Under the pieces are notes generated by a model. That model searched no databases and was not told where the DNA came from. It was given only the letters and a program-made list of their open reading frames with translations. A stretch of 64,000 nt of DNA from the IMG/VR virus record IMGVR_UViG_3300047160_001275, positions 12,250 to 76,249 of that record; one strand, 5' to 3'. Below are positions 15,458 to 44,961 of this stretch, in pieces. Numbering within the stretch: the first letter of the stretch is position 1; each line of letters opens with the position of its first letter. The position numbers and the translations under genes are program-made. Source of the DNA: a virus. Its lineage: Duplodnaviria > Caudoviricetes.

Positions 15458-18400
15458 TCAGGCCGCCTTGGCCGCCAGCCCAATAAAACTTAGGTCAGGC
15501 TCGCCAAACGCCTCGCGCGTCCAGCCGCTCCATGAGCGTAGGAACGGGGCTAAGGCCGTCCTGCGGTTGTCCCAGGCCAGCCTGAAGCTGTCGCAGGCGT
15601 TCCAGTGCCCAGGCCCGCGCTTGAAATGGCCGCCCTCCTTGGTCATCGGCACCCCAGCCAGGATGATCCGGTCGTAGCCAAGCTGACGCGCCACCGCCAC
15701 CGCGAACAGTCCGCTTGAGCCGCGCCAGTCGTCGGCGACGTCGGTGATCCCGGCAAACGGGTGCCTTCTATCGCCCTTGGTGTGCGCCCACACTTGGCTC
15801 GGCGGCAAGCGTCGGGTCCGCGCCCGCGCGCTCAGCCAGTCCTTTGCCTTGTTGGGATGGAGGGTGACGCCGACGCAGTCGCCGTCGAACTCACTGATCA
15901 TGTCGTTGATCACGAACCATGTCGCCTGGACGCCGTCGAGCAGGGCGCGGGTCTGCTCGACCTCGTGCAGGACGTCGCCGCCGCCTCCGACCACCACCGC
16001 GATAGGCTTCGTTAGGGCTTGTCCATCAAAGTTGCCGGTCTGTTCCCGTCTGGTTCCTGATTCGGCGGCGAGACGCGGATTTAATTCGGCGGAAATTCGG
16101 GCGGCTCCCGGCTTGGCCGCCTCGAACGCCATCGACTCGATCTTGTTGAAGACGTCGCCGATCACCTTGCCGTGGCCCTCGACGCCACGAAGCTCAGGAT
16201 GGGGGCTTTGCCCGACCTCCCGCTCGCAGAGATATGAGAAACCAGCGTAGCGAAGCAGGGACGCCATCACGCTCACCGTCCACGCCATCTGGTGGCCATG
16301 TGAGAACAGGATCGCCTTGGCCGCGCCATGGGCGGAAGCCTCGCCGCTCCATTTCTTGGTGAACTCGAAATACGCCTGATCGTCGCAGGCCATGATCTTC
16401 TCGATGCTCGGCACCGTCACCCGCAAGATCCCGCCGGGGGCGAGCACCCGGAACGCCTCCTCGAAAAACCGGATTGCCTCGTGGCAAGAGACGTGCTCGA
16501 CGCAGTGCTCGATGAAGATGTAGCTCGCCGAATTGTCGCGCCATGGCAACGGGCGGGCGATGTCGACGTCGGAATCATGGTTCTCCCAGCCGGGGAGCTT
16601 GTTGTCGCCGCAGCCGAGGTTGAGCTTGATCAGGGCCGTCCGCGAATCGACGCGGGATGAACTGGAAAGGGGACTGACAGCCTCCCGGCCCACCAGCGCC
16701 GCCTCGACGAACCGATCGTAGCAGAAGACATCGTTATGGCAGTGCGTCACCCAGTCGAGATCGAGCGCAACGACGTTGGCGTTAGTGATTTGATGCTTGT
16801 CGCCGCGCCAGCCTTTGATCGGCAGCATGTAGAGGTTGGGATCGCCGACGATCCCGCGCACCACCACCTCAGGGGTTGGCCTGACCTCCCGGTGCGGCCA
16901 ATCGTAACGCTGGGTGAACTGGTTCCGTTTCACCCAGTCGACCGAGAAGGCCATCAGCCCCGTCTCGACCCATCCGGCGAAGTCGCGCTCCATGCCGCTG
17001 ACCGGGATCGACGCGACCGGCTTGCCCCATTTGACCATGTCGGCGACGAGGTTGCGCACCGGCAGGCGCAGGAGCGAGTCGCCCTCGATATGGGCGACGA
17101 ACTCGTAGCCGCGTTCGACCGCCAGATCGAGCCCCTTGGTGAACGCCCGTCCCCAGCCGTCGCGGCCCTTGCGTGAGAGATGGCCGACGTTGTCGCCGAA
17201 CTGGAACACCTCGCAGCGCGGTCCATTGCTTGGCTGGATAATCGGCAGAGGCGAAGCGCTGTCGACAAGTAGGAAGTCGCAGTCCGGGTTGAGCGCGCGG
17301 TGCAGGAAGAGCCACTGCACCGTCAGCTTCTGCCGGTCGGCCGAGTCGACGTAGGTGGTGCCGAAAATCAGAGTGCGGGAGCGAGCGCCGCCTTCTGGAG
17401 GGGGTGCCGCGCCCGCTCCCTCCGTCGGTCCCGCAGCGGGGGTCGTCTTCGGGAGCGACGTGCGCCATTGCGCGGCAAACTCCCTCACCCTGTCAAGCGC
17501 GGGCGGCAGGTCGATCTTCTTGTCGCCGCAGTCGTGCCGCTCGGTGTGGCAGTCGCACGGCTGGATCGGGTCTATGCCGAGAGTCGGCGCAAGATGCGCG
17601 CCTGCCCGCTGAGTCGTCCGGTAGGATTCCCGGCCGCCATAGACGCATATCGACGGCGTTCCGACCGCCTGAGCCAAGACCGGGGCAAATCCGGCATTAC
17701 AAAAGACGATGGCAGCCTGTTTGAATAGCGCAGCCATGCTCTGGAACGTGAGTTCGCCGCCATGGAATTTCAGGTCCGCTTCTGGTTCCGGCCCGACGAT
17801 CCACTCCTCCCCCGGCTGGAGGTCGGCGATCGACACCACGAAATAGCCATCCTTCGCCGCCTTGTAGAGCGTCTCGTAGCCCTCTGGGTCTGGGTTGCGG
17901 TTGGCGCTGTTCCATTCTCTTCTCAGGACGATGGGCCGATAGACGAGGAGTGGCTTCCCTCCGGTGTCGAACGCGGGCGCTCGCCATGAGCCGGGAACCG
18001 GCAGCGAAAAGTCGAGCGGCTTCAGGTGGTCGACCGGATGGCCCTGCTCGCTGATCGCCCCCGCCATCGCTTGAAGAATCGTGCCGTAATGGTCGATGGC
18101 GGGCTTCTTGTACCACAATTTGATGTGATGGGCGGACGCTGGCGCAGCGGGAACGACCCCGAACAGGCCCCGCTCGCGCGCGATTGTCTTGGCCTGCGCT
18201 CTAAGCCTTGTGTCCTTGAAGATCAGGTGCAGCCGGTCGCCGATCAGGTCATGATAGACATGCCAGTGCGAGGTGTGCAGCCACACCTCTTCCCGCTTCA
18301 TCAGTTCCCGCAGGATCGCCCGCTGGTGGAGGTTGTCGCCGATGCCATACATGCCGTCGATGACCACCGCGCCTCCGGGGCGAGCCATATCGGCTCGGTG

Positions 18401-18565
18401 CTCGGAGATCTCAAGTTCGTGCGGCGACCGATAGAGGGCCTGGACCAACGTGTACGGCAGGTCGACCCCTTGGATCGCCTCCCCCGGCTTGACCCGCACC
18501 TCCAGTCCAAACGAATCGTACACGATTCGCGTCGCTCGGCTATTATTTCGGAGGTCATACAACAT
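15458..18565 (-). CDS. multidomain glycan-modification protein: capsid-protein-like N-terminal domain, GT9-like, GT-A-like, SAM methyltransferase, DUF115/MAF-like
   Basis: GMYGIGDNL and ELTFQSMAALFKQAAIVFCNAGFAPVLAQAVGTPSICVYG (GT9-like); LLVDSASP...NVGH...AHIEGD (GT-A-like); LNLGCG...EHCVEH...RVLAPGG (MTase); AVVVGGG...SSGLFAVAVARQLGYDRIILAG (DUF115-like). Start set at MLYDL. Confidence 0.75.
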   Translation of the reverse strand: MLYDLRNNSRATRIVYDSFGLEVRVKPGEAIQGVDLPYTLVQALYRSPHELEISEHRADMARPGGAVVIDGMYGIGDNLHQRAILRELMKREEVWLHTSHWHVYHDLIGDRLHLIFKDTRLRAQAKTIARERGLFGVVPAAPASAHHIKLWYKKPAIDHYGTILQAMAGAISEQGHPVDHLKPLDFSLPVPGSWRAPAFDTGGKPLLVYRPIVLRREWNSANRNPDPEGYETLYKAAKDGYFVVSIADLQPGEEWIVGPEPEADLKFHGGELTFQSMAALFKQAAIVFCNAGFAPVLAQAVGTPSICVYGGRESYRTTQRAGAHLAPTLGIDPIQPCDCHTERHDCGDKKIDLPPALDRVREFAAQWRTSLPKTTPAAGPTEGAGAAPPPEGGARSRTLIFGTTYVDSADRQKLTVQWLFLHRALNPDCDFLLVDSASPLPIIQPSNGPRCEVFQFGDNVGHLSRKGRDGWGRAFTKGLDLAVERGYEFVAHIEGDSLLRLPVRNLVADMVKWGKPVASIPVSGMERDFAGWVETGLMAFSVDWVKRNQFTQRYDWPHREVRPTPEVVVRGIVGDPNLYMLPIKGWRGDKHQITNANVVALDLDWVTHCHNDVFCYDRFVEAALVGREAVSPLSSSSRVDSRTALIKLNLGCGDNKLPGWENHDSDVDIARPLPWRDNSASYIFIEHCVEHVSCHEAIRFFEEAFRVLAPGGILRVTVPSIEKIMACDDQAYFEFTKKWSGEASAHGAAKAILFSHGHQMAWTVSVMASLLRYAGFSYLCEREVGQSPHPELRGVEGHGKVIGDVFNKIESMAFEAAKPGAARISAELNPRLAAESGTRREQTGNFDGQALTKPIAVVVGGGGDVLHEVEQTRALLDGVQATWFVINDMISEFDGDCVGVTLHPNKAKDWLSARARTRRLPPSQVWAHTKGDRRHPFAGITDVADDWRGSSGLFAVAVARQLGYDRIILAGVPMTKEGGHFKRGPGHWNACDSFRLAWDNRRTALAPFLRSWSGWTREAFGEPDLSFIGLAAKAA

Positions 18566-18599: not shown

Positions 18600-18785
18600 G
18601 TGTTTCGGTCGTTGGACCATCCTTCGTTTCTCCCACACCATAGCTTTGAGAATTTCCTGTCCGACATGGGGACAAAGCCAAGCCTGAAACACAGCATCGA
18701 CCGTATCGACAACGGCGGCCATTACGAACCATCCAATTGTCGTTGGGCTATGGTGTTGGAGCAAAGACGCAATCGTAGGTCTTAA
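18600..18785 (+). pseudogene. HNH endonuclease C-terminal fragment, antisense to the late operon
   Basis: [35 protein letters not shown]...EQRRNRR. Confidence 0.75.
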
Positions 18786-27721: not shown

Positions 27722-30700
27722 GACGGACGGGTGCCCGTCGACGTGAGCTTGGCGCCGATGGCGGAATTGGTGATCGCGTCCATCACGCCCTGGCTGGCGG
27801 TAACCCCGAACTCGCCGCCGTCGGTGACCAGATTGAGGCTGTAGCTGGGGGTCGCGCCCATCCGGCCGAGGCTGCTCATGGAGCCGCCATAGAGGTCGGC
27901 GGTCGGCACCAGACCTTGAGCGAAGCCCATCTCGGCCTGCATCGCCTGCCGGGCCGCCATGGTGACGCCAGGCTGACGCATCGCCAGCGCCATCATCGAG
28001 CCAGAGAGCGAGATGTCTCGCGCCAAGGCGGGGTTCAGCGCGAGCGCCCCGGCGATGCTGAGCGGCGGGCCGCCAGCGCCCTCGCCAGCCGCCAGCGAGG
28101 TTAGGCCGGTGTATTGCTGCGACACTGCCCCAGGAGCCAACGGAGAAGCTCCAGAGAAGCCAAAGAACGGGCCGCCTGCGGCGAACCGGCCAGCGTTGAG
28201 CGCGTCGAACAGGCCGATCCCGTAGCGCGACACCGCCCCGCCGCCCATCAGGTATTCGCCGTTGGAGACCAGCGCCGGAACGAGGCCGCCGCCGCCGTAA
28301 AACTCGCCCGCCTCATAGCGCCGCGACCAGCCGAAACCCGCCTCGCTGCCTCCGGTCACCGGATTGAGGGAGCGCAGCCGACGCTCCCAATCTGGCATGG
28401 TTGCCTGCGGTCGCTGTGCAAGCGACGCCCAATACTGCCACCATGCCGCCGCTCGCTGGGCCGCCTCCAGCCTGCGCTTGGCCAGAGTTCCTTTCGGCAC
28501 GCCGAGACGATTCTCTTCTGCGGCGTCCTCGGTCGCCTGATCCGGCGCGCCTGCGCCGAAGCCAGAGAACGAGCCGAAAGCTCCCAGCGTCGGCTGATTG
28601 GGGAAATTGGGATCGGGGCCGATGACAGGGATCTTATTGATTACAGACACGCCTGGCATATTGCTGGTGTAGTCGATCACACCGCCGCCCTGGAAGCGGC
28701 GGCCGTTGAGCGCATTGAGCAACGGCAACCCGATCCGCGCCGTCTGAGCGGCGTTGATCACGTACTCGCCCGCCGACAGCATCATCGGGATCGAGTCCGA
28801 GGTGCCCGATCCCGGACCGACGATCAAGCCGCCTGCCGCCTGTCCAGCAGGCCCAGTGCCGTGGGGCTCCTCTGGTGTGACCCCGGTCGCGCCTTCCGGG
28901 TTCACCTGCTGCGGGATGGCGCCGCCGAAGCCATGCGGGCCGATGGTTATCGATTGGTTGATCGTATTCAGAATCCTATCCAGCGCCTCCAGCCCAGTCG
29001 CGGCCCGTCCCGCAGCGTCTCCGAGCCGCTTCAGGTCATCGGTGGCGGCGGGCATGGCCGCTAGGCCAGCCTTCACCTGTAGGATCTGCGACTGGAGATC
29101 GGCCATGGCGGCGGCGCGGCCATAGGCGCTGGATGGCTCATAACCTCCCAGCATGGTCTCCGCATACCGCCGCCGGATCGGCTCCAGTTCTGGGGCGACC
29201 TCGGTCATTTCAGGACCGATGGCGCGCAGCTTGCTCAGGAGTTCGACCGGAGCCATCCCGCCGAGCACGCGCGGGGTCAGGCCGAGCGCCTCGAACATCC
29301 TGAGCGCCGCCTGGGTCGACGGGCCGGGAGCCGCCCCTTCCTTTTCCTCTGGCACGTATTGACGGATGAACTGCGCCAACGCCGAGAACGGTTGGCCCTG
29401 AAATTGAGTGTTGGCGATGTCGAAGACGGCGGCGCGCAAGGTTTCAGGCCGCGCCGTCTGCAAGATGCCAGGGACATCGCCGCCCCGGATCATTTGCTCG
29501 ACCGGGCCAAGCTGCCGTCCACGCAAGTCTTCGGCCGCCCGCTCCGCTGCCCGCTCCCCCCTCTCCATCTGTTTGATCAGGTCGCGGGTGGCGTCGATAT
29601 TCTGCCGCGTCGTGTCGGCATTGCGCTGAAGCTGTTCCGCGAACGCCTGCGGTCCAGGCCCTCCGGTCGGGCTTAAGCCCCTCCCCTGATACTCGCGCGC
29701 CTTCTCTCCTTCTTCGACCGCGCGCTCACGGGCGGCGGTGGCTTCTCGCGACTGCAACGCCGCCGATTGAAGGTCCAATTGGTTAAGCTGATATTGCAGG
29801 TACTGCGCCATTTCCGGGTTGTCAGCGCCAGCCACCCGCATCTGGGTCTGGACTTCGCGGATCTGCGCCCGCTGCTCGGCGATGGCCGCCGACTCTGGCC
29901 GGAACTTCTCAAGCTCCTGCGCTTGCAGCCGCTGCTCCTCGGCTGCGTGCTCGCCCTCGATCGTCGCCTTGGCCTGGGCCTCGGTCGCCGACTCGATCGC
30001 GTCCTGAAGGCTGCGCTTGGAATCCGCCACCTTGCGGTCGGCGGCGACGATGGCGTCAGTCGCAGCCTCCGTCTCGTCCGCCGCGTCACGCTGGGAGCGG
30101 GCGATCTCCTGCATCGAGGCGCGGGACTCGGCAGCGACGCGAGCGTAGGCGCGCCCCAAGACCTCGACATGCGCGCCATGGCTGGCGAAATTGACCGCCA
30201 GCGCCGCCATCTGCTCGGCGGATATACCCGCCGTTTCCGCCATCTCGCGGAACCCGCCGACCAGTTCCTTGGCGTTGCGGGCGGCGATCTGCTCGGCCGT
30301 CTCGACCGCCGCCAGACCGGCGATGATCGCGGTGATCGGGCTGGCCAGCGCCGTCAGCGCCCGCGCCATGAACCCGATTGCGCCGCCAGCCTCGGTGGCC
30401 GCCGTGGTGATCTTGACGAAGCCTTCGGCGACCTCGGCCAGAGACCCCGCCTCCACGCCCTCGGAGATGATCTTCAGCGACTCGCCGAACTTCTTCATCC
30501 CCTCGCCAGCCTGGGTGGCGCTCTCTCCGGTCTCCTTTAACTTTTCCGGCAACCCGCGAAGGAAGCCGAGAATGCCGCTGAAAGCCCCGCCGCCAACGCC
30601 GCCTGCCGCACCGCCGCCCCCGCTCACCATGGCTTGCAACGCCTGGGCGACCGCCGCCGTGCCCGCCTGATGCGCGGTGGGCTCGTTCAGCGCTTGCCGG

Positions 30701-30984
30701 ATCGCGGCCATCCCGGCGCGATGGGCGCGTTGCGTGTGCTCGACGAAAGCCTTGCCGTATGCCTCCCCGTGCCGAGCCCCTTCGCGTTGAAGCGCCTCCC
30801 CAATTGGGGACATTCCTTTGACGATGTCGTCAGACTTAATCGCCTTCGAGACATCGATCTGACCGAGCGCCTGCTCGACCCCTTGCTTGATCTTCGACCC
30901 GGTTTGCGACGCCTTCTGAGCGACGTCCGAGTCGTCGTACTGGACTTTGATCGTAAAGACGTCGCTGGTGTCGTCGTCAGCCAT
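27709..30984 (-). CDS. tape measure protein
   Basis: 1091 aa, Ala/Gly/Glu-rich helical; GPGSGTSDSIPMMLSAGEYVINA C-terminal motif; synteny. Confidence 0.85.
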   Translation of the reverse strand: MADDDTSDVFTIKVQYDDSDVAQKASQTGSKIKQGVEQALGQIDVSKAIKSDDIVKGMSPIGEALQREGARHGEAYGKAFVEHTQRAHRAGMAAIRQALNEPTAHQAGTAAVAQALQAMVSGGGGAAGGVGGGAFSGILGFLRGLPEKLKETGESATQAGEGMKKFGESLKIISEGVEAGSLAEVAEGFVKITTAATEAGGAIGFMARALTALASPITAIIAGLAAVETAEQIAARNAKELVGGFREMAETAGISAEQMAALAVNFASHGAHVEVLGRAYARVAAESRASMQEIARSQRDAADETEAATDAIVAADRKVADSKRSLQDAIESATEAQAKATIEGEHAAEEQRLQAQELEKFRPESAAIAEQRAQIREVQTQMRVAGADNPEMAQYLQYQLNQLDLQSAALQSREATAARERAVEEGEKAREYQGRGLSPTGGPGPQAFAEQLQRNADTTRQNIDATRDLIKQMERGERAAERAAEDLRGRQLGPVEQMIRGGDVPGILQTARPETLRAAVFDIANTQFQGQPFSALAQFIRQYVPEEKEGAAPGPSTQAALRMFEALGLTPRVLGGMAPVELLSKLRAIGPEMTEVAPELEPIRRRYAETMLGGYEPSSAYGRAAAMADLQSQILQVKAGLAAMPAATDDLKRLGDAAGRAATGLEALDRILNTINQSITIGPHGFGGAIPQQVNPEGATGVTPEEPHGTGPAGQAAGGLIVGPGSGTSDSIPMMLSAGEYVINAAQTARIGLPLLNALNGRRFQGGGVIDYTSNMPGVSVINKIPVIGPDPNFPNQPTLGAFGSFSGFGAGAPDQATEDAAEENRLGVPKGTLAKRRLEAAQRAAAWWQYWASLAQRPQATMPDWERRLRSLNPVTGGSEAGFGWSRRYEAGEFYGGGGLVPALVSNGEYLMGGGAVSRYGIGLFDALNAGRFAAGGPFFGFSGASPLAPGAVSQQYTGLTSLAAGEGAGGPPLSIAGALALNPALARDISLSGSMMALAMRQPGVTMAARQAMQAEMGFAQGLVPTADLYGGSMSSLGRMGATPSYSLNLVTDGGEFGVTASQGVMDAITNSAIGAKLTSTGTRPSWYS

Positions 30985-31597
30985 TGCGGGTGGCTTTCAT
31001 CTTCGCCTTGAACAGGAGCGGCAGCTTCTTGGCCGCCGCCAGCGAGATCGGGCGCAGGTGGAATTTTTGCGGGATGGTCACCGACTCCTTGCCGAAATAT
31101 TTCGGCTGCTTGTCTTCGGCGCTCAGCAAGAGCGGCGCGAGATAGCCGCCAGCGAACCGGCCTGTCGTCGGATTGCGCTTCTGCCCGCGCCAGCCAGCGC
31201 CGCTCTGACGGGTGCGATCGACCCTAAACAACCGGCCGGGATAGTCGCGCGCCCAGATTCCCTGGGCGTCCTGGGCGAACGGCAGCGGTATCCACAAGAG
31301 CGGCTTGCCTCGGATGACCGCCCCGTACTCGAACACGGTCCAGTAGGGCACGTCCTCAATCACGTCGATCTTGACCTGCCCGCCGCCCTCGGAGATGTCG
31401 GCGTGAAAGCCGTCGATCCAGCGCGAGCCGAACCTGCCCGCCCGCTCGATATCGGCGCGGCCCTCGGTCTCGATCTCGGTCGCCACATCCTTGGCCGAGG
31501 CGCGCAGGGCGTCACGGCCGCGCTTGCCCCATCGGTTCGAGGCGCGCTTGAACACCTCGGTGATCTGGTTGTCGTCGACGTAGATGCGGACCTTCAT
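30977..31597 (-). CDS. HK97 gp10-like tail completion protein
   Basis: ALRASAKDVATEIE...YWTVFEYGAVI. Confidence 0.55.
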   Translation of the reverse strand: MKVRIYVDDNQITEVFKRASNRWGKRGRDALRASAKDVATEIETEGRADIERAGRFGSRWIDGFHADISEGGGQVKIDVIEDVPYWTVFEYGAVIRGKPLLWIPLPFAQDAQGIWARDYPGRLFRVDRTRQSGAGWRGQKRNPTTGRFAGGYLAPLLLSAEDKQPKYFGKESVTIPQKFHLRPISLAAAKKLPLLFKAKMKATRNG

Positions 31598-35008: not shown

Positions 35009-35398
35009 TTAGCGACGAAGTGAGAGCTTCCAGAACACCAGAGTGCCCGCTGGCTTGATCGGCTCTGGGCGGACGATGATGCGCAGGTTCTCATCCTCGA
35101 CCGGGACATCTCCGAGCGGCTGCAAGAACGTAATCAGCCGGTCGAGGTCGTGATCAGGCGGCGGATTGATCGGGGCCAGAAGCGCCATCCTGACCAAGGG
35201 ATCGGCGAGGCCGCCCATCATCTCGCGCGCGTTCCAGCGGCGCAGGAACACCCTGACCCAGCGGTCCTGGGCGTTGAGTTGGCCGCCCCGACGCAGGATC
35301 GCAGGCTGTCCGTGCTGGGCGATGATCGCCGCGCATTGCTGCGACAAAGCCCAGTAGTTGAACGGCGCGGCGGGGTGGGGGATCGGCAGCGGGATCAT
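35009..35398 (-). CDS. head closure protein
   Basis: IIAQHGQPAILRR...; follows the DUF4054-like gene. Confidence 0.6.
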   Translation of the reverse strand: MIPLPIPHPAAPFNYWALSQQCAAIIAQHGQPAILRRGGQLNAQDRWVRVFLRRWNAREMMGGLADPLVRMALLAPINPPPDHDLDRLITFLQPLGDVPVEDENLRIIVRPEPIKPAGTLVFWKLSLRR

Positions 35399-35769
35399 AC
35401 CAGGCCTACCGCCGGGATCTTGAGCGAGCAGATCTCAAGGAACCGCACGCCGAACGGAGTGGTGGCGAGGTCGGTGTGATCGGCCAGGGTGGGCGGCGGC
35501 ACCGTCTCGTAGCTGTAGGAGATCTCGCCGCCGACGCTGACCGAGCGCAGCACCTGCCCCGCCCCCCCGGCCAGGGTCTGCATCGCCCGCATGACGATGT
35601 GGGCGACATAATAGAGGAACGCCATCAGATACCAGTCATCGAACACCGACGGGTCGACCGAGAGGTTGGCCTCCTCGATCGCGAACTCGATCAGGGCGTC
35701 CTCGACATTGCGAAAGACGGGGAAGCGGATCTTGACCGAGGCTGCGGTGATGGCGTTCGGCAGACTCAT
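35395..35769 (-). CDS. DUF4054-like head-tail adaptor
   Basis: KIRFPVF...YYVAH...SVGGEISYSY...TTPFGVRFL. Confidence 0.75.
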   Translation of the reverse strand: MSLPNAITAASVKIRFPVFRNVEDALIEFAIEEANLSVDPSVFDDWYLMAFLYYVAHIVMRAMQTLAGGAGQVLRSVSVGGEISYSYETVPPPTLADHTDLATTPFGVRFLEICSLKIPAVGLV

Positions 35770-35805
35770 GGCGTCGTCTCCATGATTCGGGAACAAAGCG
35801 CCGCG

Positions 35806-36774
35806 TCATTCCACATTATACGGAGGGCCGCCTTTGTATGGATGTCCTGCCGGAAGGTTAGCTTGCATCCCCCACTTCCAAGCGAGGTAGCCTTCGAGCT
35901 TCTGGCGGTCGGCGGTTGTAACGCCAGCGCATGCTATCGCTTCGCCATAAGTGCCGGAAGTAAACGGATGCCCATAGGCCGTGCCAAACCGAACCTGATC
36001 GCCAGTGGACCCGTAAGAAGTTGCGCCAGCTGGCTGGCTATTCGTGACAACTGTTCCATTGTTACTTTCAACCAGCGCATCGCTCGGACGATCATAATTG
36101 CGGATAAACACAACTGGGGTAGTCGTTTGCGGAAATGCTGAGCCTAATGCTGCTTGCGTGGACCCATCTCCGATATAAACCCCCCCGCTTTCATCGTATA
36201 TTGGGTCAGCGTTGTACGGAGAGGCAGACAACACTTGGGAAAACAATCCACCATGAAAATTGACGGTGTTTGCCGTAACCACATAGGCGCAGCTTACGGC
36301 AGTGGGGAATTGGCCAGTGGGAATAGATAATTGCAAGTAATTGTTCGTTCCATTGAACGTCAGCGCCGGATAGCCGTTCAGCCCCGTTGCATTATAGGTT
36401 GGCTGGTAAGCGGCAGTCCCCTGCACGGCGTTGTAGCCATGCCCGCTCTGATCGTTCCATTGCGATACAGTCAAACCATTGAGGATAATGCTCGATGTAT
36501 TTTGTGCGTCGTACCAAGCAACGAGGTTAGACATGAGGGCAGGTGTCCAAGCCGCTGCAAAATGCTCATAGTCCCACAACGCCCTAACCGGATCGAGATA
36601 GGCGGCCTTGGAGAACACCGGCTGACCGAGCGCCGCCTCGATGTGCCTCATGGCGTCGACTGGGTCCAGATAGGTGTGCGGCGGGAACAGCATCGGACTG
36701 TTCAACTGGATCGCAATCTGTCTCATCGTCAGCGCCGGATCGAGATAGCTATATTGGGTGAACGGAACGATCAT
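35806..36774 (-). CDS. lectin/LamG-like virion protein with three N-terminal YLDP repeats
   Basis: LVAWYDA...VSQWNDQSG...QPTY...RQKLEGYLAWKWG; visibly lower GC than the flanks. Confidence 0.7.
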   Translation of the reverse strand: MIVPFTQYSYLDPALTMRQIAIQLNSPMLFPPHTYLDPVDAMRHIEAALGQPVFSKAAYLDPVRALWDYEHFAAAWTPALMSNLVAWYDAQNTSSIILNGLTVSQWNDQSGHGYNAVQGTAAYQPTYNATGLNGYPALTFNGTNNYLQLSIPTGQFPTAVSCAYVVTANTVNFHGGLFSQVLSASPYNADPIYDESGGVYIGDGSTQAALGSAFPQTTTPVVFIRNYDRPSDALVESNNGTVVTNSQPAGATSYGSTGDQVRFGTAYGHPFTSGTYGEAIACAGVTTADRQKLEGYLAWKWGMQANLPAGHPYKGGPPYNVE

Positions 36775-36781
36775 GGCCGCC

Positions 36782-37147
36782 TCACGCGATCATCGCCAAG
36801 GTGACCGCCATCATCCCTTGCGTCACCGTGGCGCGGTTGCCGTTGACGTCTTGGATCGCGGCCTCGTGGTAATAGTTGCCGGGCGGCAGGCTGATCGTGT
36901 CTGCGCTCGCCAAGTGAACGATGAACTGGAGCGGCGACGGCAGGATGGTGATCTGGCCGAGGGCCGTGCTCGCCTTCAGGATCACCTCGCCGCCCGAGGC
37001 GAGGCTGGTCGGCACGGCGAAGTTCTGCTCGAACGCCGCCCAGGTCACCGTCGCGCCGGTAAGCGAGATCTGATCGGTCGGGTCGAGGTTGAAGACGACG
37101 TCCATGTCATCCCCCTGCGGGACGCTGAAGTCCTGAATGGCGGGCAT
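36782..37147 (-). CDS. BppU N-terminal-like adaptor domain protein
   Basis: QGDD...LTGATV...ADTISLPPGNYYHEA. Confidence 0.55.
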   Translation of the reverse strand: MPAIQDFSVPQGDDMDVVFNLDPTDQISLTGATVTWAAFEQNFAVPTSLASGGEVILKASTALGQITILPSPLQFIVHLASADTISLPPGNYYHEAAIQDVNGNRATVTQGMMAVTLAMIA

Positions 37148-37154
37148 TGAAGCC

Positions 37155-38954
37155 TCAGATGGCTGAGATCGATGGCCGGTCGCGATCGGCGCGCAGGCCG
37201 ACGGGGGCGCGTGAGGCGGCGACGAACGCCATGTCGCGGTCGGCGCTGACCGAGATCCGGCGCGCGTTGACGCCCGTGCGGTGCTGAGTCGCGCTGATCA
37301 GATCGGGGGCGATGGCTGCTTCCGCCGCCGCGATCACCCCGCGCCATGTCGCTCTAGGCAAGTCGCTGGCGGAGGCCGCCTCGATCAGAGCCTGATGGTG
37401 GTTGGCGACGGCGGATGGCGCGTCGATGGCGAGAGCGTGCTCGTCGCCGCGCTCCAGCCATACCGGCGGCGGCGGAATGGCGAACAGGTCGATGGCGCGG
37501 GCGGTGTCGGCGACCAGCGCGTTAATGACCCGCTGCGCCGACACCACGTCGCCTGCAACGGACCCCTCGACTACCGATGGGTTGATGGTCCTCGTCGCCA
37601 GCGGAGATCCAGAGGCCGCCGCAAGCTCATTGACCACAACGGCGTGCTTGGCCGCAGTCGTCGGCTGATCGATCGCCGACGCCATCTCGACCAGGGCGGG
37701 ACGCCATGCCGACGGGCTGATTTGCGGATGGTCGATGGCCGCCGCCGCCTCGGCCGCCATGCCCGTGAAACCAGCGATGAGCAGCGAATGGTCGATGGCC
37801 GCCGCCGTCGCGCTCAAGCCCGCCACGCCCTTGAAGCCGCCCGTCGGGTGGTCGATGGCTGAGGCTGGCGCAGTCAGAGCGGCGACGAAGCTCGCCTTGA
37901 GCGATTGCACCGACCCCGCGACCGCCGCCTCGGTGAAGCTGACCGGCCACGTCGGGCCGGTGGGGAGCAGCGCCGCGATCCCTTCCTCGCGTTTGTGCTC
38001 GATCCTGAGCGCCCGCGCCTTGCCCGTGCGTGCGCCGAAGAACTTGGGAGCCTTCTTGTCCTTGCCGGTCTGGCTGCCCTTGCCGGTGGTGGCGGGAGGC
38101 GGCGGCACGTAGACCGGCGGCCCCGACGTCTCGATCAACGCGGCGCCAGGCAGGAACGAGTTGACCGACTGGGTCTGGCTGAGGGCGACGATCCCGAAGC
38201 TCGGAGCGCCCGGCGTCACCACGCTCTGGCTCTTGGACGGCGCTCCGACCACGTTGACCGAAGCCCACACTTCGACCGCGCACTGGGTCACCTGCATTCG
38301 CGGCGGTTGTGGCGCTGCCCAGATCTCGGTCGCCGCCTGGGTCACCTGCATCTGGGTCGGCGGGGGGACAATCGAGTCCCATGACGAAAAGCCGCTTGGA
38401 ACCGGGTAGGCGAACGCCGTCGCGCCGAAGTTCGCTACGACTGCGCTGCCGGAAAGGAAGGAAGCAAAAAACGGATATGCGCTCTGCCCACTGAAACCTG
38501 CGCCAGAAAGGCTTATGCCCCCGGTGTTGGTCGCCGGATTAGCGGCGCCCGAATTATTCCAGTTGCCGCCGTTGATCCGCGCCCAGAAGGTCAGGTTGAC
38601 GAGATCGACGGCGATGGAGACGACTTGCCCCGTAGCGAGAGTTACGCTCACAGCCCCAACGATGGCGTTGTTGCTGACGATGTTGCTGGGCGGCTGAACT
38701 AAGCAAGAATGCAGGCAATTCTGGGTGTTCAGGATTTGGGCCGCCGTTGCGACGCCAATGTCGATGATCGCGCCGCCGCTGCCGCCACTGCCAAGCGTCA
38801 AAGTCGCTTCAAAATAATATTTGCCCGCAGCGGCGGCAGCGGCGGGGTAGCCCCGAACGCCGCTGTCGGTCGAACTCGACATCGTCGCTGTCAGGTTGAA
38901 GTTGCTGAGAACGACACCGCCAGATAAATCAGCCGAGTTCCAAGTCGCAGTCAC
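37155..38954 (-). CDS. SPRY-like domain plus repeat-shaft fibre protein
   Basis: WNSADLSGGVVLSNFNLTA...GKYYFEA; C-terminal AxAIDHP repeats. Confidence 0.65.
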   Translation of the reverse strand: MTATWNSADLSGGVVLSNFNLTATMSSSTDSGVRGYPAAAAAAGKYYFEATLTLGSGGSGGAIIDIGVATAAQILNTQNCLHSCLVQPPSNIVSNNAIVGAVSVTLATGQVVSIAVDLVNLTFWARINGGNWNNSGAANPATNTGGISLSGAGFSGQSAYPFFASFLSGSAVVANFGATAFAYPVPSGFSSWDSIVPPPTQMQVTQAATEIWAAPQPPRMQVTQCAVEVWASVNVVGAPSKSQSVVTPGAPSFGIVALSQTQSVNSFLPGAALIETSGPPVYVPPPPATTGKGSQTGKDKKAPKFFGARTGKARALRIEHKREEGIAALLPTGPTWPVSFTEAAVAGSVQSLKASFVAALTAPASAIDHPTGGFKGVAGLSATAAAIDHSLLIAGFTGMAAEAAAAIDHPQISPSAWRPALVEMASAIDQPTTAAKHAVVVNELAAASGSPLATRTINPSVVEGSVAGDVVSAQRVINALVADTARAIDLFAIPPPPVWLERGDEHALAIDAPSAVANHHQALIEAASASDLPRATWRGVIAAAEAAIAPDLISATQHRTGVNARRISVSADRDMAFVAASRAPVGLRADRDRPSISAI

Positions 38955-40477
38955 GTCAACACCTTAGGCCCGACCTGGAGGCTATTGACTGCGGACGCGG
39001 TCCACCCCGCCCCAGTGTTCGGGTCGTTAAGATAAGCGCCCCACACCCACCCAAAGGAGGTGTTCAACAAAGTCTGCCCGTTGGGGGCCTGGACTGTCGT
39101 CGCGCTGCTCTTCAATTGCACCGTTCCAGTGCGCGAGCCCGCATCGCCCTTCTGCGCGAACCCACGGGCAGTGACGCCAATAATGGAGGCGGGTGTGAAC
39201 CCTAGCGGGGCGACGCCATAGAAGTCGGCGTCGCCGGGGGTCGAGTCGTAAACAAGAGTCGTCGCGCCGTCTTGCTGCGGCTCGCTGCAAAGAAAGGCGT
39301 TTAACGGCGTGAGCATGGCCGCAAGCTCGCTGCCGAGCACGTTTGGGGCTTGCAGAATCGCGCTGGCCCCTGTCGATGGCAACGACCCGGTGTACGTGTA
39401 GCTCTGGCGATAAACGCCGGGGTCAGTGGCGGCGCCGTAGACGCTGATCGACACGTTCCCGTTGAGCGCGACAAAGTATTTCGTCCCCACCGTGATCGTC
39501 GGCGGGGTCGCGAACGTGAAGATGTTGTTGCCGATAATCCCGTTCACGAGGACCGAGGTCGTGCCGTTCGTGAGGAGATTGCCCGGCCCGCCGCCAGTCC
39601 CGGTCGCATCATAAAGGCCGCAAACCGCATTTCCCGTGAAACCGGCGGACGAGCGGATGATGATCGATTGGACGGGGCCGAAGATCCCGACCGGCGCGGT
39701 GAAGGGCATGAATTGAAGGACGTTCCCGGCCGGGCCGGTCGCATTGCTTTGCGGCGGGGTCAACTGGAACTGGAGCGAAGACGGAGACTTGCTGAATTGC
39801 ACGCCCTGATCGCTAACCGGCATCCGCGTGTAACAGCGGATGTCGCCCACCCATGGAACCGAGGACGGATCGGAGCGCCAGAGAAGGTCGTCCATCACTG
39901 GGCCGACGGGGAAGCCGTTGTAGCCAACCACAAGCTTACTGGCGTAATTGTTCGTGCTGCCAGCCCGCGTGTTCAATCCGGTCGCCGAAAAGCTGTTGGC
40001 GGTCGCGCCGTTGGTCCTAACCGCGAACGAACCCGTGGCGTTATTGACAACCACCTCGAACTCGAACGCGTACCACGTGCTGGCTATCGGGATCGCGTTG
40101 GCGTAAGTCGCCAGCGTCGCGCCGCCGATGCTGCCGGATTGGAGCAGCACCGTGCCGTCCAGCCGAAAGTAGACCGTGCATTGGTTGGTCGCGCCGTCGG
40201 CGAAGGTAAAGTATGGCCCGGCGCCGGTGTTCCCGTAATTCTGGTTTATGTTGATGGCGACGACAACGTGGTGAACCGCATCGTTGGCTCCGCTTGATTT
40301 TGTGAAGCATGTCCCTCCGTTGTTGCCAAAGTACCAACCCCGCCCGACGCCAAACCGCGTCGTGGCGCTAACACCTCCGTTGTTGCCGCCTGCGCTTCCT
40401 GAGTCCCAGTATGCTGCGGCGGCGTCCGCAGTCGCCGCATAAAGGTCGAATCCGTCCCCGAACATCTGCATGGTCAA
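38951..40477 (-). CDS. virion fibre/lectin-like protein
   Basis: MFGDGFDLY...WYAFEFEV...DDLLW...WVGDIRC; Ser/Thr/Gly-rich. Confidence 0.6.
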   Translation of the reverse strand: MTMQMFGDGFDLYAATADAAAAYWDSGSAGGNNGGVSATTRFGVGRGWYFGNNGGTCFTKSSGANDAVHHVVVAININQNYGNTGAGPYFTFADGATNQCTVYFRLDGTVLLQSGSIGGATLATYANAIPIASTWYAFEFEVVVNNATGSFAVRTNGATANSFSATGLNTRAGSTNNYASKLVVGYNGFPVGPVMDDLLWRSDPSSVPWVGDIRCYTRMPVSDQGVQFSKSPSSLQFQLTPPQSNATGPAGNVLQFMPFTAPVGIFGPVQSIIIRSSAGFTGNAVCGLYDATGTGGGPGNLLTNGTTSVLVNGIIGNNIFTFATPPTITVGTKYFVALNGNVSISVYGAATDPGVYRQSYTYTGSLPSTGASAILQAPNVLGSELAAMLTPLNAFLCSEPQQDGATTLVYDSTPGDADFYGVAPLGFTPASIIGVTARGFAQKGDAGSRTGTVQLKSSATTVQAPNGQTLLNTSFGWVWGAYLNDPNTGAGWTASAVNSLQVGPKVLT

Positions 40478-40483
40478 CCAAAC

Positions 40484-42421
40484 CTAATAGATTCCTGGGT
40501 CGAGGTAATAAACCATCGAGGGCCGGGAAAATTTCGGGTAACAATAGAGATACCCGGCCAGTCCAGGCTGCGGCGACGACAGGGTGAGCGTCATCGAAAA
40601 CCGGCAGCCCGCCCTGAAGGTCGCGGCGCCGTCGGTCACCGGGACGCCGTCGACCGCCGACGCATAGCCCGGCTCGCTCGACGCGCTGGTCCCCGCCGTG
40701 ATGCAGAAGAACACGCGCCCCGGATTGCTCGCCGTCTTGATGACCTGCCCCACGGTGTAGGCGGTCGAGTTGGCCCTCAGCGGCGCGCCCGTGTCCCAGG
40801 CCGAGCCGTCGGCGGGCAGGGCCGTTGGCGACGCCAGCGACAGCACCCCGCCGCGCGCGTAGGAGGATTGCGGGGTCGAGGACGAGCCGAGGTACTCGAC
40901 GTCGAACCACGCCTCGGCGTTGGTCGGCACCCGCGTGTCGTTGGCCACGCCGAAGATCGAGACGTTGCGGTTGGCCCCAGTGACCGTGTTCCAGACCGCC
41001 AGCGGGATGGCGTTGTAGACAGACATCCAGTTGACGGCGTTGGCGCTGGTGGCGACCTGATGCGAAACCGCGACCCCGCCGTCGGCCGCCCCGCCCGTGC
41101 GGACGACCGTGGTCGACGTCGTCTCTGTGGCGAGACTGGTGTGCCGTTCGTTGCGGTAGGCGGCGCCGCCGCTGTCGCAGCGGTTGAGGTCGATCACCAG
41201 ACTGTCGGGCATAGCGGAGTCGCCGCCCCGATAGACGCTGGCCATGGTGGATGAGAGCTTGCAATCCTTGAACACGATGTAGCCAAAGGGCACGCTGGCG
41301 TCGTAGTTGTTCGGCCCGACCAAAGGGGTGCTGCTGACCACGTTGGTGCTGAGGTCACAGCCCTCGATGACGGCGTTCACCTGCTGACTGCTGCCGCCGA
41401 ATATCTCGTTGGCGGAGCCGCCGATTGATCCGGTGATCGAACACCCCTCCAGCCTGACCGAGCCGAACAGCGTGAACACGTGCCCCGCATTGCCCAAACA
41501 CTGCAAGCTGCAATTCCTGAACGTGATCAACCCGCCGCAATTGTTCTGGTCGCCGAGGCCGTAATTGTATGGATTCGTGTTGGCGGAGCCCGATCCAACG
41601 ACACACTGCTCAAATATGACGCGCGATCCCTGCGCGTTCCCGACCGACCCGTTGTTTCCGCCGCAATATGCGGTCACCCCGTAAACGTAACTGTTAAACG
41701 CTCCGGTTGCTGTGCTGTACCAAAACGGCGTCCCATTGTTGGAATAAAATGTCGCCCCCGGTTTCAAATTGGCGGACGTCAATGGGAACGCCGCCGTATG
41801 ATCGACAGAGAGCAGTCGCGTGGTTAGCCCATACGCCCAAGTCGTGGTCCAAGGCCCTTCGTTATGATCGTCGCCGACAAATATCGTTACGCCATTATTT
41901 CGCGTCCAAGTGAACTGGAAAACATTGTTCAAGCTATTGATCGGAGCCGCCCAGCGCGCCGTGAAAGCGCTGATCGCGCCGACGCAGGTCCAGACCGCGC
42001 TGGCGTCTGTCGTCGTCGATCCGGCGGTCGTGTTCCAGGCTGGCTCGGCCCCCGTGCCGCCAGCCCCGGCTGTGGTGCAGATGAAATAAGATGTCGCCGC
42101 GACGTTCTTGATGAACTGCCCGAGCGCCGGGGTCTGGCTCGCCAGCCAGGAGTTGCTGTTGGCGCTGTCGCCGTTCGGCGCAGGCTGAGCCGAGCATTCC
42201 TGCCACACCGGGCCACCCGTCTCGGTGGTCTTTGCTCCCTGCCCCGTGCTCCAAGTCGGCTCAGTCGAGAGCGACGTTCCGGCCGTGATGCAGATGTTGC
42301 AGCGGTTCGACGCAGATCCGCGAACAATCTGCCCGACCGTATAGGCGTGAGTCGCCGCCCATGCCGCGACCGCAGTGTAGGCGACCGAATCGATGTAGAT
42401 CGCGCTTTCGGTGTAAGCCAC
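40484..42421 (-). CDS. virion fibre protein with repeated carbohydrate-binding-like modules
   Basis: WAATHAYTVGQIV / WLASQTPALGQFI / RANSTAYTVGQVI followed by C.TAGTS...EP...TxD modules; lower-GC central domain. Confidence 0.65.
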   Translation of the reverse strand: MAYTESAIYIDSVAYTAVAAWAATHAYTVGQIVRGSASNRCNICITAGTSLSTEPTWSTGQGAKTTETGGPVWQECSAQPAPNGDSANSNSWLASQTPALGQFIKNVAATSYFICTTAGAGGTGAEPAWNTTAGSTTTDASAVWTCVGAISAFTARWAAPINSLNNVFQFTWTRNNGVTIFVGDDHNEGPWTTTWAYGLTTRLLSVDHTAAFPLTSANLKPGATFYSNNGTPFWYSTATGAFNSYVYGVTAYCGGNNGSVGNAQGSRVIFEQCVVGSGSANTNPYNYGLGDQNNCGGLITFRNCSLQCLGNAGHVFTLFGSVRLEGCSITGSIGGSANEIFGGSSQQVNAVIEGCDLSTNVVSSTPLVGPNNYDASVPFGYIVFKDCKLSSTMASVYRGGDSAMPDSLVIDLNRCDSGGAAYRNERHTSLATETTSTTVVRTGGAADGGVAVSHQVATSANAVNWMSVYNAIPLAVWNTVTGANRNVSIFGVANDTRVPTNAEAWFDVEYLGSSSTPQSSYARGGVLSLASPTALPADGSAWDTGAPLRANSTAYTVGQVIKTASNPGRVFFCITAGTSASSEPGYASAVDGVPVTDGAATFRAGCRFSMTLTLSSPQPGLAGYLYCYPKFSRPSMVYYLDPGIY

Positions 42422-42423
42422 GG

Positions 42424-42894
42424 CTAGCCGCCGATTTCCTCGAACGTCACCCCGCCGCTGAGATGCACAGCGGGCGAGAAGGCGGTCAGAAGCTCGAACA
42501 CGTAAGCCGCGCCCGCCGGGATGACGTAAGGCTCGTCCAGGGCGTCGTCATAGCCGTTGTAGAGATGCGCCCCGTCCTCCCACAGGATCACCGCCGTCGC
42601 CGAGGTGGTCGCCTTGGCGGTCGAGTTGCAGCGAATGGTGGCGGTGGTCAGCGGATCGCCGGGGTCGAGCGATCCGACCTGCGGCGTCGAGCCGCCGCTG
42701 CCATGAGTCACCGTGGCGGGCAGGTAGCGTTCCCTGAGCGCGAACATCTGCGCCGCCGGGATGTTGTTGTCGGTGCAGCCCACCCACCGATGCAACACCC
42801 TGATCATCCTGGGCGCGACCGGCGAGATCTCGACGAGGTCCGTGAAGGTCGAGCAGGCGATCTGTTCGAACGTCACGCGGCCGATGCGGCTCAT
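42424..42894 (-). CDS. hypothetical virion protein
   Basis: 156-aa ORF in the operon. Confidence 0.6.
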   Translation of the reverse strand: MSRIGRVTFEQIACSTFTDLVEISPVAPRMIRVLHRWVGCTDNNIPAAQMFALRERYLPATVTHGSGGSTPQVGSLDPGDPLTTATIRCNSTAKATTSATAVILWEDGAHLYNGYDDALDEPYVIPAGAAYVFELLTAFSPAVHLSGGVTFEEIGG

Positions 42895-42974
42895 GAGCGA
42901 TAAATCCTGTTATGGATGATGTTCTGGATTGTCCGATTAGTCAGCGGTAAGTAATTGATATTATAAATAAAATT

Positions 42975-43571
42975 TCACATGCTTGTTGAATAACTGACAG
43001 TTACGGTGTCACCCGAGCCGACGGTCTTCGCCCCGCCGGAGAAGGTGCCCGCGCTCCACAGCACGCCAGCGGCGCTGTCCTTGGTCGCGGTCGCCCCGGT
43101 GCCGTAAAGGACGAAAGCCCCCTCCAGCGTGCCCGCGCCGGTCATCGAGTAGGAGAGGTTCGAAGACAGCGCGATGGCCCCGCCCGAGGCCGCCGCCCAG
43201 GCGCAGGTCTGCCGGTTGCCCGAATACGGCGGCGCGTTGGTCCCGCCCGCCTCCTTCCATTGATTGGTGCCGTTGATCTGCGCCCCGGTGTCGCTGGCCT
43301 GGGTCTGGGTCCAGCCGACCGACGAGATCAGCCCCATGAACGGGCCGATGACGGTGTAGGCGGTCCCGGCCAGGAAGGTGCCGAACGCGAGGTTCTTGCC
43401 TTCCGTACAGACCACGTTCGAGATCTCCTCGAACCATTTGATCGCGCCGTCAGGGCCATGGCACCAGATCTTATAGACGCCACCGGCGTGCGCCTGCTCC
43501 TCCATTCCCGCGCGACGCGCGACCGTCGCGCCCACCGCGTCAGCGGCGGCGGCCTTGGCTTTCATGTTCAT
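42975..43571 (-). CDS. hypothetical virion structural protein
   Basis: KWFEEISNVVCTEGKN...YSGNRQT...GAFVL...LWSAGTF...VSYS pattern common in phage structural genes. Confidence 0.65.
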   Translation of the reverse strand: MNMKAKAAAADAVGATVARRAGMEEQAHAGGVYKIWCHGPDGAIKWFEEISNVVCTEGKNLAFGTFLAGTAYTVIGPFMGLISSVGWTQTQASDTGAQINGTNQWKEAGGTNAPPYSGNRQTCAWAAASGGAIALSSNLSYSMTGAGTLEGAFVLYGTGATATKDSAAGVLWSAGTFSGGAKTVGSGDTVTVSYSTSM

Positions 43572-43586
43572 GTCCTTCGATGAGTC

Positions 43587-43647
43587 GCGGATCGTCCCGC
43601 TTGGGGCCGTTACCGGCGCGTTTACGGGCTTAGGCGGGACGACCCGC
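43587..43647. other. intergenic stem-loop
   Basis: GCGG-A-TCGTCCCGC ... GCGGGACGA-C-CCGC inverted repeat between capsid-proximal genes. Confidence 0.45.
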
Positions 43648-43679
43648 TTCTTGGCTGGTCATGCCAAGCCCGGTGGTTC

Positions 43680-44006
43680 TCAGCGCGGCGAGCGCTTGAC
43701 GTGGCCGTGCGGCTCTGGCGCAGGCTCAGGAGCAGCGTCGGCAGGAGGGCTGACGAATGGGCGCAGCGGAGCGAACTCCGACTCGAACTCGCCCTCGAAC
43801 GGCCCCTTGTCCGTATATCGGACCTCTTGACCTTCGGCCGCCTTCGCCGCGCCCTTGAGCAGGAAAGCGAGCAGCGGCCGGGGGAGCACGATCTCCTTCG
43901 TCTCGCCCGGCCCGATGCGGTACTGCTCCATGCCGTCAGGGCCGCCGTGGATGACGCGCGGCGCGGGTGTGACGTTGGCGACTTCGACTCTGACCAAATC
44001 TGGCAC
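43680..44006 (-). CDS. small capsid-associated protein downstream of the major capsid gene
   Basis: VEVANVTPAPRVIHGG...RIGPGETKEIVLP, Pro-rich tail; synteny. Confidence 0.65.
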   Translation of the reverse strand: MPDLVRVEVANVTPAPRVIHGGPDGMEQYRIGPGETKEIVLPRPLLAFLLKGAAKAAEGQEVRYTDKGPFEGEFESEFAPLRPFVSPPADAAPEPAPEPHGHVKRSPR

Positions 44007-44016
44007 ACGCTCCTCC

Positions 44017-44961
44017 TTAGATGCCGTCAGTGTAACAGAACGCGCCAGGCCGCCGGATCTCGGTCGAGCCGATCCTGAACACGCCGGGGATGTCGAACGT
44101 CATCGGCCCCGTCTGCCAGACCGAGAAGAACCGATGCGGCATCGGGATGTGCAGCTTCACGATCTGCGGGTCTCTCCGATAGGTCACCATTCTCGCGGTG
44201 CCGCCGATCCCCATCGTGTCAAGGTTGATGGTGGCCAGGATGGTGAGGTCTTGGCCGGTGGTTTGCTTGTAGAGGTTGTACTTCTGCAAGTACTCCAGCG
44301 CGTTGCCATAGGTGTTAGGCACGCGGGTGTTGGCCAGAAGCTGGAGGTTGGCGATCGGCAGCAGCACCGTGTCGGCCATCTCGACCGTCAATGACCCCTG
44401 ATAGACCTGGGTCAGAGAGTTCTGGACGTCGGCGATCATCTGATCGGCCGTCTTGTTGACCCACAAGGACGATGAGCCGGTGCCGGTCGCTGGCGCAGTG
44501 ACTTGCTGGACGAGGGCGTTGTTGAACAGGCCGGTGACATTCTTGCGCTTGTCGCCGACGCGGGCCATCCGGTCGACGAACTCCTCATAGGCGCGTCTGG
44601 CCGCCGCCGCCCTTTCGGTCGACAAGTTGAGGTTGGGGATCATCATCGCCTGCCCCAGTTCCTCAAGCGTATAGCGGTAGCCGATCGCCGCCATCTCGAT
44701 CGATTGCTCGTATTTGTTGCGGTTGATGTCGGCGACCGGCATGGCGGTTGCGTAGCCGTCGTACCAATCGGCGTTGCCGACCTTGTCGACCGAGTAGTAA
44801 GTGACGCTCTTCGCCCATTCGGACGCCGAGCTATCGATCGGGATCAGCCGTGTATAGAGAATATCCGGGTACTGGATGCGATAGACTTCCGGCTCTATGT
44901 GAGACGTTTGAGAAACGAGGAACCCAAACGCTTGTTGGGTGTCGTACATAGGGAATCGCAT
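44017..44961 (-). CDS. major capsid protein (DUF2184 / encapsulin-like HK97 fold)
   Basis: FLVSQTSHIEPEVY...YPDILY.RLIPI...IGYRYTLEELGQA...GDKRKNVTGLFNN. Confidence 0.9.
   Translation of the reverse strand: MRFPMYDTQQAFGFLVSQTSHIEPEVYRIQYPDILYTRLIPIDSSASEWAKSVTYYSVDKVGNADWYDGYATAMPVADINRNKYEQSIEMAAIGYRYTLEELGQAMMIPNLNLSTERAAAARRAYEEFVDRMARVGDKRKNVTGLFNNALVQQVTAPATGTGSSSLWVNKTADQMIADVQNSLTQVYQGSLTVEMADTVLLPIANLQLLANTRVPNTYGNALEYLQKYNLYKQTTGQDLTILATINLDTMGIGGTARMVTYRRDPQIVKLHIPMPHRFFSVWQTGPMTFDIPGVFRIGSTEIRRPGAFCYTDGI

Follow-up and report, generated by a model that had tools for sequence, protein, structure and literature searches.

The enzymes of self-glycosylating phages have to find their substrates on the virion. 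To our knowledge, phage self-glycosylation is established solely for a few mycobacteriophages, and we know of no description there of a docking domain shared with a protein of the head module. Their glycosyltransferases reportedly decorate virion proteins, the substrates are said to be tails at the C termini of the capsid and tail-tube subunits, and the hosts are actinobacteria. The locus described here poses a concrete question: why does a large, putatively glycan-building enzyme begin with a segment that resembles a small protein encoded right after the major capsid gene? The window, the 64,000-nucleotide (nt) stretch of DNA analysed here, covers the greater part of an IMG/VR virus record that is complete at 76,249 bp. 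An earlier note on this DNA had aligned the two segments by eye and suggested that the shared module could dock the enzyme on the capsid or procapsid. Here we report that the two segments are homologous at the profile level, that they define a previously undescribed domain family, and that the domain may act as an address tag for the assembling head.

Architecture of the enzyme polyprotein

The enzyme is encoded by a long minus-strand open reading frame (ORF) located past the last tail gene (15458–18565, −), in which the first ATG with a coding signature lies at 18565 and yields a 1,035-residue protein. The N-terminal domain copy (residues 1–55; 18401–18565, −) is followed by a short linker, identified in the sequence, that contains an internal methionine, Met60 (residues 56–63; 18377–18400, −), and by a GT9-like/GT-B-like transferase domain (residues about 64–390; 17396–18376, −). 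The remainder of the polyprotein (15458–17395, −) comprises a Pro/Ala linker, a GT-A-like domain, a class I SAM methyltransferase and a DUF115/MptE-like domain (residues about 855–1033), as assigned from Pfam, PHROGs and BLASTP to the fusion proteins P0046 and P0076; the last 180 residues resemble the DUF115/MptE-like body found in other fusion proteins. The methyltransferase held up in Pfam (Methyltransf_11, residues 671–714, 27.2 bits against a gathering cut-off of 21.2) and is the sole domain of the polyprotein confirmed there. In PHROGs, the enzyme also matches the methyltransferase family phrog_6636 and, weakly, phrog_4603 (E 0.35).

Residues 67–352 match phrog_6804 (E 6.6e-37, PHROGs), and the homologues of the GT9-like part in D3-like phages carry GT9 or GT-B labels from their depositors. 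This part gave no match to PF01075 or any other Pfam family at E ≤ 1, and no PDB sequence match by single sequence or profile. Its Atlas language-model features score 0.97 to PF01075 clusters, and 13 of the 30 nearest clusters fall in the PF01075-carrying set. The GT9 label thus derives from the depositor annotations of homologues and from language-model features, with no support from Pfam or PDB sequence searches.

The gene is placed in a late operon adjoining sugar-activation genes, and downstream of it follow genes for a methyltransferase, a PfkB kinase and an NAD epimerase. We also considered a role in DNA glycosylation and rejected it, as a non-exhaustive check of ten genes found no base-hydroxymethylation gene among them.

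Homology between the enzyme N terminus and the post-capsid protein

The small ORF (43680–44006, −) encodes 108 residues and starts with a GTG codon located 10 nt past the capsid stop codon and preceded by a GGAGGAG Shine–Dalgarno site. Its position right after the capsid gene, the residues quoted in the earlier note and the enzyme start at ATG 18565 all agree with the sequence. The protein is fronted by the domain copy (residues 4–65; 43812–43997, −) and ends in a low-complexity, Pro/Ala/Glu-rich tail (43680–43811, −), which, as judged from the translation and the alignments, varies among relatives and in the window sequence contains few Ser/Thr residues. The Atlas model of the small protein has low overall confidence, and an Atlas search with it returned only unnamed viral clusters.

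Pairwise methods do not detect the relationship. BLASTP of the enzyme against the small protein gave no alignment at E ≤ 100, single-sequence searches of their own genome with either protein retrieved only the query itself, and a word-indexed search for homologues of the small protein yielded only its self-match. These failures are explained by the divergence of the copies, which are 21–40% identical. Relatives were therefore gathered by synteny: in viral contigs, we collected six related capsid loci, every one of which has a small ORF right after the capsid gene, and these six ORFs share a common N-terminal motif.

Profiles built from these relatives revealed the enzyme. Among the 1,172 six-frame ORFs of the window, a profile of the six post-capsid ORFs together with that of the window matched just one other ORF, the enzyme (E 7.9e-4, from Met1; next ORF 2.2). 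A window-free profile, made from the six relatives' proteins, retrieved the post-capsid ORF (E 3.3e-5) and the enzyme ORF (8.1e-4; next 4.2) from the same set. The converse searches gave the same pair: two relatives' enzyme N termini retrieved the post-capsid ORF at E 8.7e-4 and the enzyme at 8.1e-4 (next 0.5), and twelve enzyme-fused copies from unrelated metagenomes retrieved them at 3.3e-5 and 8.5e-9, respectively (next 0.67). Furthermore, the profile–profile comparison that the earlier note had proposed as a check was significant, as hhalign joined the post-capsid set to the enzyme set with a probability of 98.2% (E 5e-14, 46 columns) and reproduced the register of the alignment made by eye. 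Pairwise BLASTP between the window enzyme N terminus and other enzyme-fused copies gave E values of 1e-4 to 1e-5. At the level of sequence profiles, and at that level only, the resemblance is thus confirmed as true homology, and the claim that the enzyme starts with a copy of the small-protein domain is borne out, the profiles singling out just these two ORFs.

Translation start of the enzyme

The GC content of the domain segment by codon position (0.65/0.37/0.75) follows the pattern of the rest of the gene, whereas this coding pattern is absent from the in-frame 147 nt upstream of ATG 18565 (0.37/0.53/0.65; 52% overall). The enzyme orthologues of two complete relatives likewise begin with the domain, and one of them is preceded by a GGGAGGGG site. 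Moreover, nine of the 80 closest GT9-like loci, which lie on viral contigs, bear the domain, always in the same ORF and directly ahead of the catalytic domain; in three of these nine, the first residues of the domain are fixed as the start by in-frame stops or a strong Shine–Dalgarno site. The segment is therefore almost certainly translated as the enzyme N terminus. The earlier note had allowed for a true start at the downstream MARPGG methionine, and the coding GC pattern and the starts in relatives argue against this and place the domain inside the protein. An additional internal start at Met60 may be used.

We regard as improbable in the extreme, and as already contradicted by these data, the reading in which the resemblance is due to chance or the segment is an untranslated leader ahead of a true start at Met60. 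It could draw on the failure of BLASTP, on the D3-like homologues, which start near residue 53–70, and on ATG 18565 itself, which, unlike the start of the small ORF, has no Shine–Dalgarno site in front. Against it stand the four independent profile tests, hhalign, the codon-position pattern and the nine relatives that keep the domain in frame, including the three with a fixed start.

A 217-bp low-GC (52%) gap separates the last tail gene from the enzyme start. A 61-residue ORF on the opposite strand of this gap (18600–18785, +) has no Pfam match and aligns, at 66% identity (E to 6e-15), with the C-terminal part of HNH endonucleases from many phages. It has the look of a homing endonuclease gene that has decayed next to the domain start, and such a remnant may explain the missing Shine–Dalgarno site.

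A previously undescribed domain family

In an AlphaFold2 (AF2) model of the enzyme copy from ten sequences (pLDDT 93.2), the domain of about 55 residues is predicted to comprise four strands (residues 2–7, 13–16, 22–25 and 30–35), a helix (38–46) and a last strand (51–55). The earlier note had placed the segment at 18420–18565; the location was right, and the whole domain is slightly longer, since the last strand carries it to residue 55, at about 18401. The model of the post-capsid set alone (pLDDT 75.8) shows an identical order of elements, so that the structural check on each copy gave agreement; the enzyme-copy model was built from a mixed alignment (A3), and the two models are not fully independent. 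Both retrieved the same unnamed phage proteins in BFVD, with A0A385IRI3 first (probability 1.0, TM up to 0.80), and a few of these neighbours are annotated as HeH/LEM.

The domain matched no Pfam family at E ≤ 10 with 10 members or at E ≤ 0.01 with 138 members, and hence no known carbohydrate-binding module (CBM) family, and none of the 138 gave a PHROG, NCBIfam or PDB sequence match. We took the top PDB profile match, ribosomal L3 (E 0.09), as chance and dismissed PsaD-like entries in a Foldseek search of the PDB (E about 0.5) as a common arrangement. A nearly invariant Asn was considered as an N-x-S/T sequon and rejected, because the third position is often not Ser/Thr and a Pro follows the Asn; from the alignment we read this residue as a structural turn. 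On these comparisons, the domain is a new, previously undescribed family, which we define here as the post-capsid N-terminal domain. The enzyme copy belongs to it both by its match to the profile of post-capsid proteins from other genomes and by its predicted fold. The earlier note knew of no description of such a fusion, and we likewise found none in Pfam, PHROGs, NCBIfam, PDB sequences or the literature searched.

The post-capsid gene lies in the head-gene block

The small protein lies directly downstream of the major capsid protein gene (PF09950, 256.5 bits; 44017–44961, −), which is preceded by a gene for a cement/decoration protein of the E217 gp24/Pam3 gp6 type (PF22758, 64.8 bits; 45070–45606, −); a head-to-tail adaptor of the DUF4054/E217 gp27 type is encoded further on (PF13262, 56.3 bits; 35395–35796, −). 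The head-gene order in the window is therefore cement, capsid, domain protein, adaptor. In distant contigs, small members of the family are also placed between the capsid gene and an E217-gp27-type adaptor gene, with a cement gene before the capsid gene in one of them. The label 'capsid-associated' given to the small protein derives only from this position between the capsid and adaptor genes. The positional equivalent in E217, gp26, is missing from the modelled proteins of the solved E217 virion, the head-gene order of which is identical. We rejected gp26 as a solved counterpart of the small protein, as the two have no detectable sequence similarity.

The small post-capsid gene is separated from the adaptor gene by about 8 kb (35806–43571, −) of large, fibre-like genes that are rich in Ser/Thr/Gly/Ala and gave no Pfam matches, and one of them (42975–43571) is conserved in the relative G012. 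These could possibly encode head fibres, which would be candidate glycan acceptors. A 128-residue ORF in another frame (43622–44008, −) overlaps the small post-capsid gene; as homologues and codon-position GC favour the 43680–44006 frame, we consider it an artefact of high GC content, although gene-calling software might select it.

Two domain copies per genome

Nine related phages of 60–78 kb carry two domain copies each, one at the extreme N terminus of the enzyme and one in the small ORF right after the PF09950 capsid gene. In all nine fused-enzyme genomes in which the capsid region is covered (G000, G001, G002, G006–G010 and G012), we found exactly one further copy, always in the post-capsid ORF. 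The pairing is thus strict among these genomes, and each partner also occurs on its own elsewhere. G003, a relative with a complete genome, encodes the small protein but lacks an enzyme homologue, which argues that this protein has its own function. G004, L009 and the D3-like phages have the enzyme without the domain; since some relatives such as G004 have enzymes without it, the domain appears to be an accessory that is dispensable for them.

Copies from the same genome are no closer to each other than cross-genome pairs (permutation p 0.64) and show no sign of co-evolution; together with their low identity, this indicates that the duplication is old.

In G004 (IMGVR_UViG_3300012001_000025, an incomplete record), the four enzyme domains occupy separate frames or ORFs (28272–31535), and the GT-A-like match contains one in-frame TAG; these ORFs represent either a split or a decaying polyprotein.

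Spread of the domain and its fusion partners

Among 1.84 billion representatives searched with a profile of the domain, 204 clusters matched at E ≤ 1e-3 and 52 of these at E ≤ 1e-10. Most are small proteins (median length 107 residues) with an N-terminal domain, and about nine of the 204 are long fusions, in which the domain is joined to four unrelated types of enzyme body: GT9-like (P0076, P0089 and P0083), DUF115-like (P0046), GT-A-like (P0007, P0097 and P0128, the last with an internal copy) and a body of unknown type (P0054 and P0086). Three fusion proteins hold two tandem copies of the domain. The linkers that join it to the bodies are Pro-rich and measure 17–45 residues in relatives, and that of the window is short. 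In each of three fusion-bearing gene clusters, one enzyme carries the domain and the others lack it. These features support the domain being, as far as sequence can tell, an autonomous and portable module.

In a tree of 151 copies (63 columns, poorly resolving), the enzyme-fused copies cluster beyond chance (9 changes against 14.5 when shuffled), and the tree is compatible with one or several origins of the fusion. The P0054/P0086 body of about 290 residues (locus L017, 8001–9065) is matched by no family of Pfam, PHROGs or NCBIfam; its gene follows tail genes and precedes two methyltransferases and the lysis genes, and it is probably a further glycan-related enzyme of unknown family.

Among cultured phages, tblastn of three family members found nothing in 50,697 phage records, so that no cultured phage there has a close member. 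The sole cultured-phage profile match is weak (12–14 bits), to the post-capsid protein of Rhizobium phage RHph_TM3_3_3 (L024, MN988468.1, 11852–12142). The closest cultured relatives by capsid identity (41–47%; L023, L024 and L025) have small post-capsid proteins with a strand-rich N-terminal part. By eye, a C-terminal HeH/LEM-like helix motif can be recognised in some distant small members and in post-capsid proteins from cultured phages of Rhizobium and Pseudomonas.

A putative address tag for the assembling head

Because the domain is folded, tethered, swapped among unrelated bodies, sometimes doubled and accompanied by a free-standing paralogue, we interpret it as a domain for targeting or assembly. 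Since the paralogue keeps a constant place within the head-gene block and is closely coupled in translation to the capsid gene, a component of the assembling head would be the most economical partner. We therefore infer three things, namely that the domain binds a partner, that this partner is the head and that virion proteins are the substrates, and propose the following mechanism. A copy of the ancestral small-protein N-terminal domain would have been placed ahead of a late-expressed, glycan-building polyprotein. It would fold independently, tethered by the linker to the GT9-like, GT-A-like, methyltransferase and DUF115-like domains, and would bind the same partner as the domain of the small protein, so that the enzymes become concentrated at that partner. 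If the partner is the assembling head, the glycan would be made on virion proteins and not on host lipopolysaccharide (LPS).

We give about even chances to this reading, in which the domain is an address tag that brings the enzymes to the assembling head for glycosylation of virion proteins and in which the head is deduced from gene position. The homologous enzyme pair of D3-like phages, which sits inside the head–tail joining genes, speaks for it. Several observations weigh against it: the cement slot of the head is already taken by the PF22758 gene, just nine of the 80 closest GT9-like loci bear the domain and relatives have the enzyme without it, the same-genome copies give no co-evolution signal, ATG 18565 lacks a Shine–Dalgarno site, and the post-capsid product of E217 is not modelled in the virion. 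The wider proposal, in which a family of address domains derived from the post-capsid gene recruits interchangeable glycan enzymes to the head, as a general modular form of virion self-glycosylation in phages of Gram-negative bacteria, is possible but rather doubtful.

Three other functions were weighed. The domain could be a general accessory module that acts independently of the head, by binding carbohydrate, nucleotide sugar or nucleic acid or by oligomerisation, with the small protein using it otherwise. A domain, a Pro-rich linker and a catalytic body are the classic architecture of carbohydrate-active enzymes, and the HeH/LEM-like C-terminal motif seen by eye in some small members, along with the HeH/LEM annotations in BFVD, fits such a role; yet none of the 138 members matches a CBM or other Pfam family, the small members keep a fixed slot among head genes, and in each cluster one enzyme carries the domain. 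On balance we find the accessory role unlikely. Similarly improbable, in our judgement, is a pairing of domain with domain, in which the enzyme copy binds the small-protein copy, for example by sheet joining, and the small protein serves as substrate or adaptor with no direct contact to the shell. Such pairing would account for each genome having two copies and no more, with one on each partner, and for the tandem copies in some enzymes, and the variable, exposed, low-complexity tail of the small protein could accept sugars. It sits less well with same-genome copies being no closer than cross-genome pairs (p 0.64), with G003, whose complete genome encodes the small protein but no enzyme, and with a tail that is poor in Ser/Thr in the window.

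The remaining alternative, a tag that loads the enzyme into the head interior for delivery to the next host, we hold to be highly unlikely. In its favour, a protein of the head module contains the same domain, and some small members have, by eye, a possibly DNA-binding end motif; however, a four-enzyme glycan line needs activated sugars, the genes for which are co-expressed late in the producing cell, and a folded domain of 55 residues does not resemble the short tags known so far.

The address tag, as we read the domain, offers a candidate element to delete, swap or use as bait, and two copies in one genome, one post-capsid and one on an enzyme, provide a genomic marker for such systems. Binding of the tag to the head would tie the widespread GT9-like/methyltransferase cassettes, among them the one in D3-like Pseudomonas phages, to virion coating over LPS conversion, and the domain might then serve as an anchor for capsid display. 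If the partner differs, the post-capsid gene, which is unannotated in the three cultured relatives examined, would still gain a first functional lead.

Comparison with known systems

Targeting domains are well known as a principle. The T4 capsid-targeting sequence, which the prohead protease cleaves off the N terminus, and the cargo-loading peptides of encapsulins are both short and linear, and they direct proteins into the interior of HK97-fold shells. The window element resembles them in being a terminal element common to unrelated proteins that would be sent to the same shell, and differs in being a folded 55-residue domain with a free-standing paralogue. CBM–linker–catalytic enzymes and dockerin–cohesin systems use a small autonomous domain, single or in tandem, on a Pro-rich tether with interchangeable catalytic bodies. 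Our domain is likewise tethered by a Pro-rich linker to swappable enzyme bodies, but it is unrelated in sequence to the CBM and dockerin Pfam families, and its free-standing copy is a head-module gene.

The N-terminal domain of YqbF from the Bacillus subtilis skin prophage (PDB 2HJQ, PF14553) is also a small sheet-plus-helix domain at the N terminus of a short phage protein. Against our domain model, it gave a VIA-align Z of 4.2 (r.m.s.d. 2.5 Å over 50 residues, chain residues 1–50), tied with ribosomal L30 and subtilisin propeptides, and a Foldseek TMq of 0.51 at E of about 1. The domain has no match to PF14553, however, and the structural likeness may be just a common arrangement. The C-terminal partner of the YqbF domain we take, following Pfam, to be HeH/LEM, and we know of no function or enzyme fusions for YqbF.

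Mycobacteriophage virion glycosylation, for which PMC12582341 cites Freeman et al. (2023; its reference 80), is the established biology that comes nearest. The likeness to the window lies in phage-encoded glycosyltransferases acting late; for the window phage, virion glycosylation is itself a proposal.

The D3-like Pseudomonas phages (D3 orf12/orf13, PAJU2, PMG1 and PP9W2) encode a homologous GT9-like domain (29–32% identity, E to 1e-26) adjoining a methyltransferase. In contrast to the window polyprotein, each of their enzymes is a small protein of its own that begins directly with the catalytic domain, and the N-terminal domain is absent. In PP9W2 (L015, NC_074662.1, 7076–8471), D3, PAJU2 and PMG1, the GT9-like and methyltransferase genes lie between head-closure and tail-component genes, and the D3-like phages that carry this pair can be cultivated.
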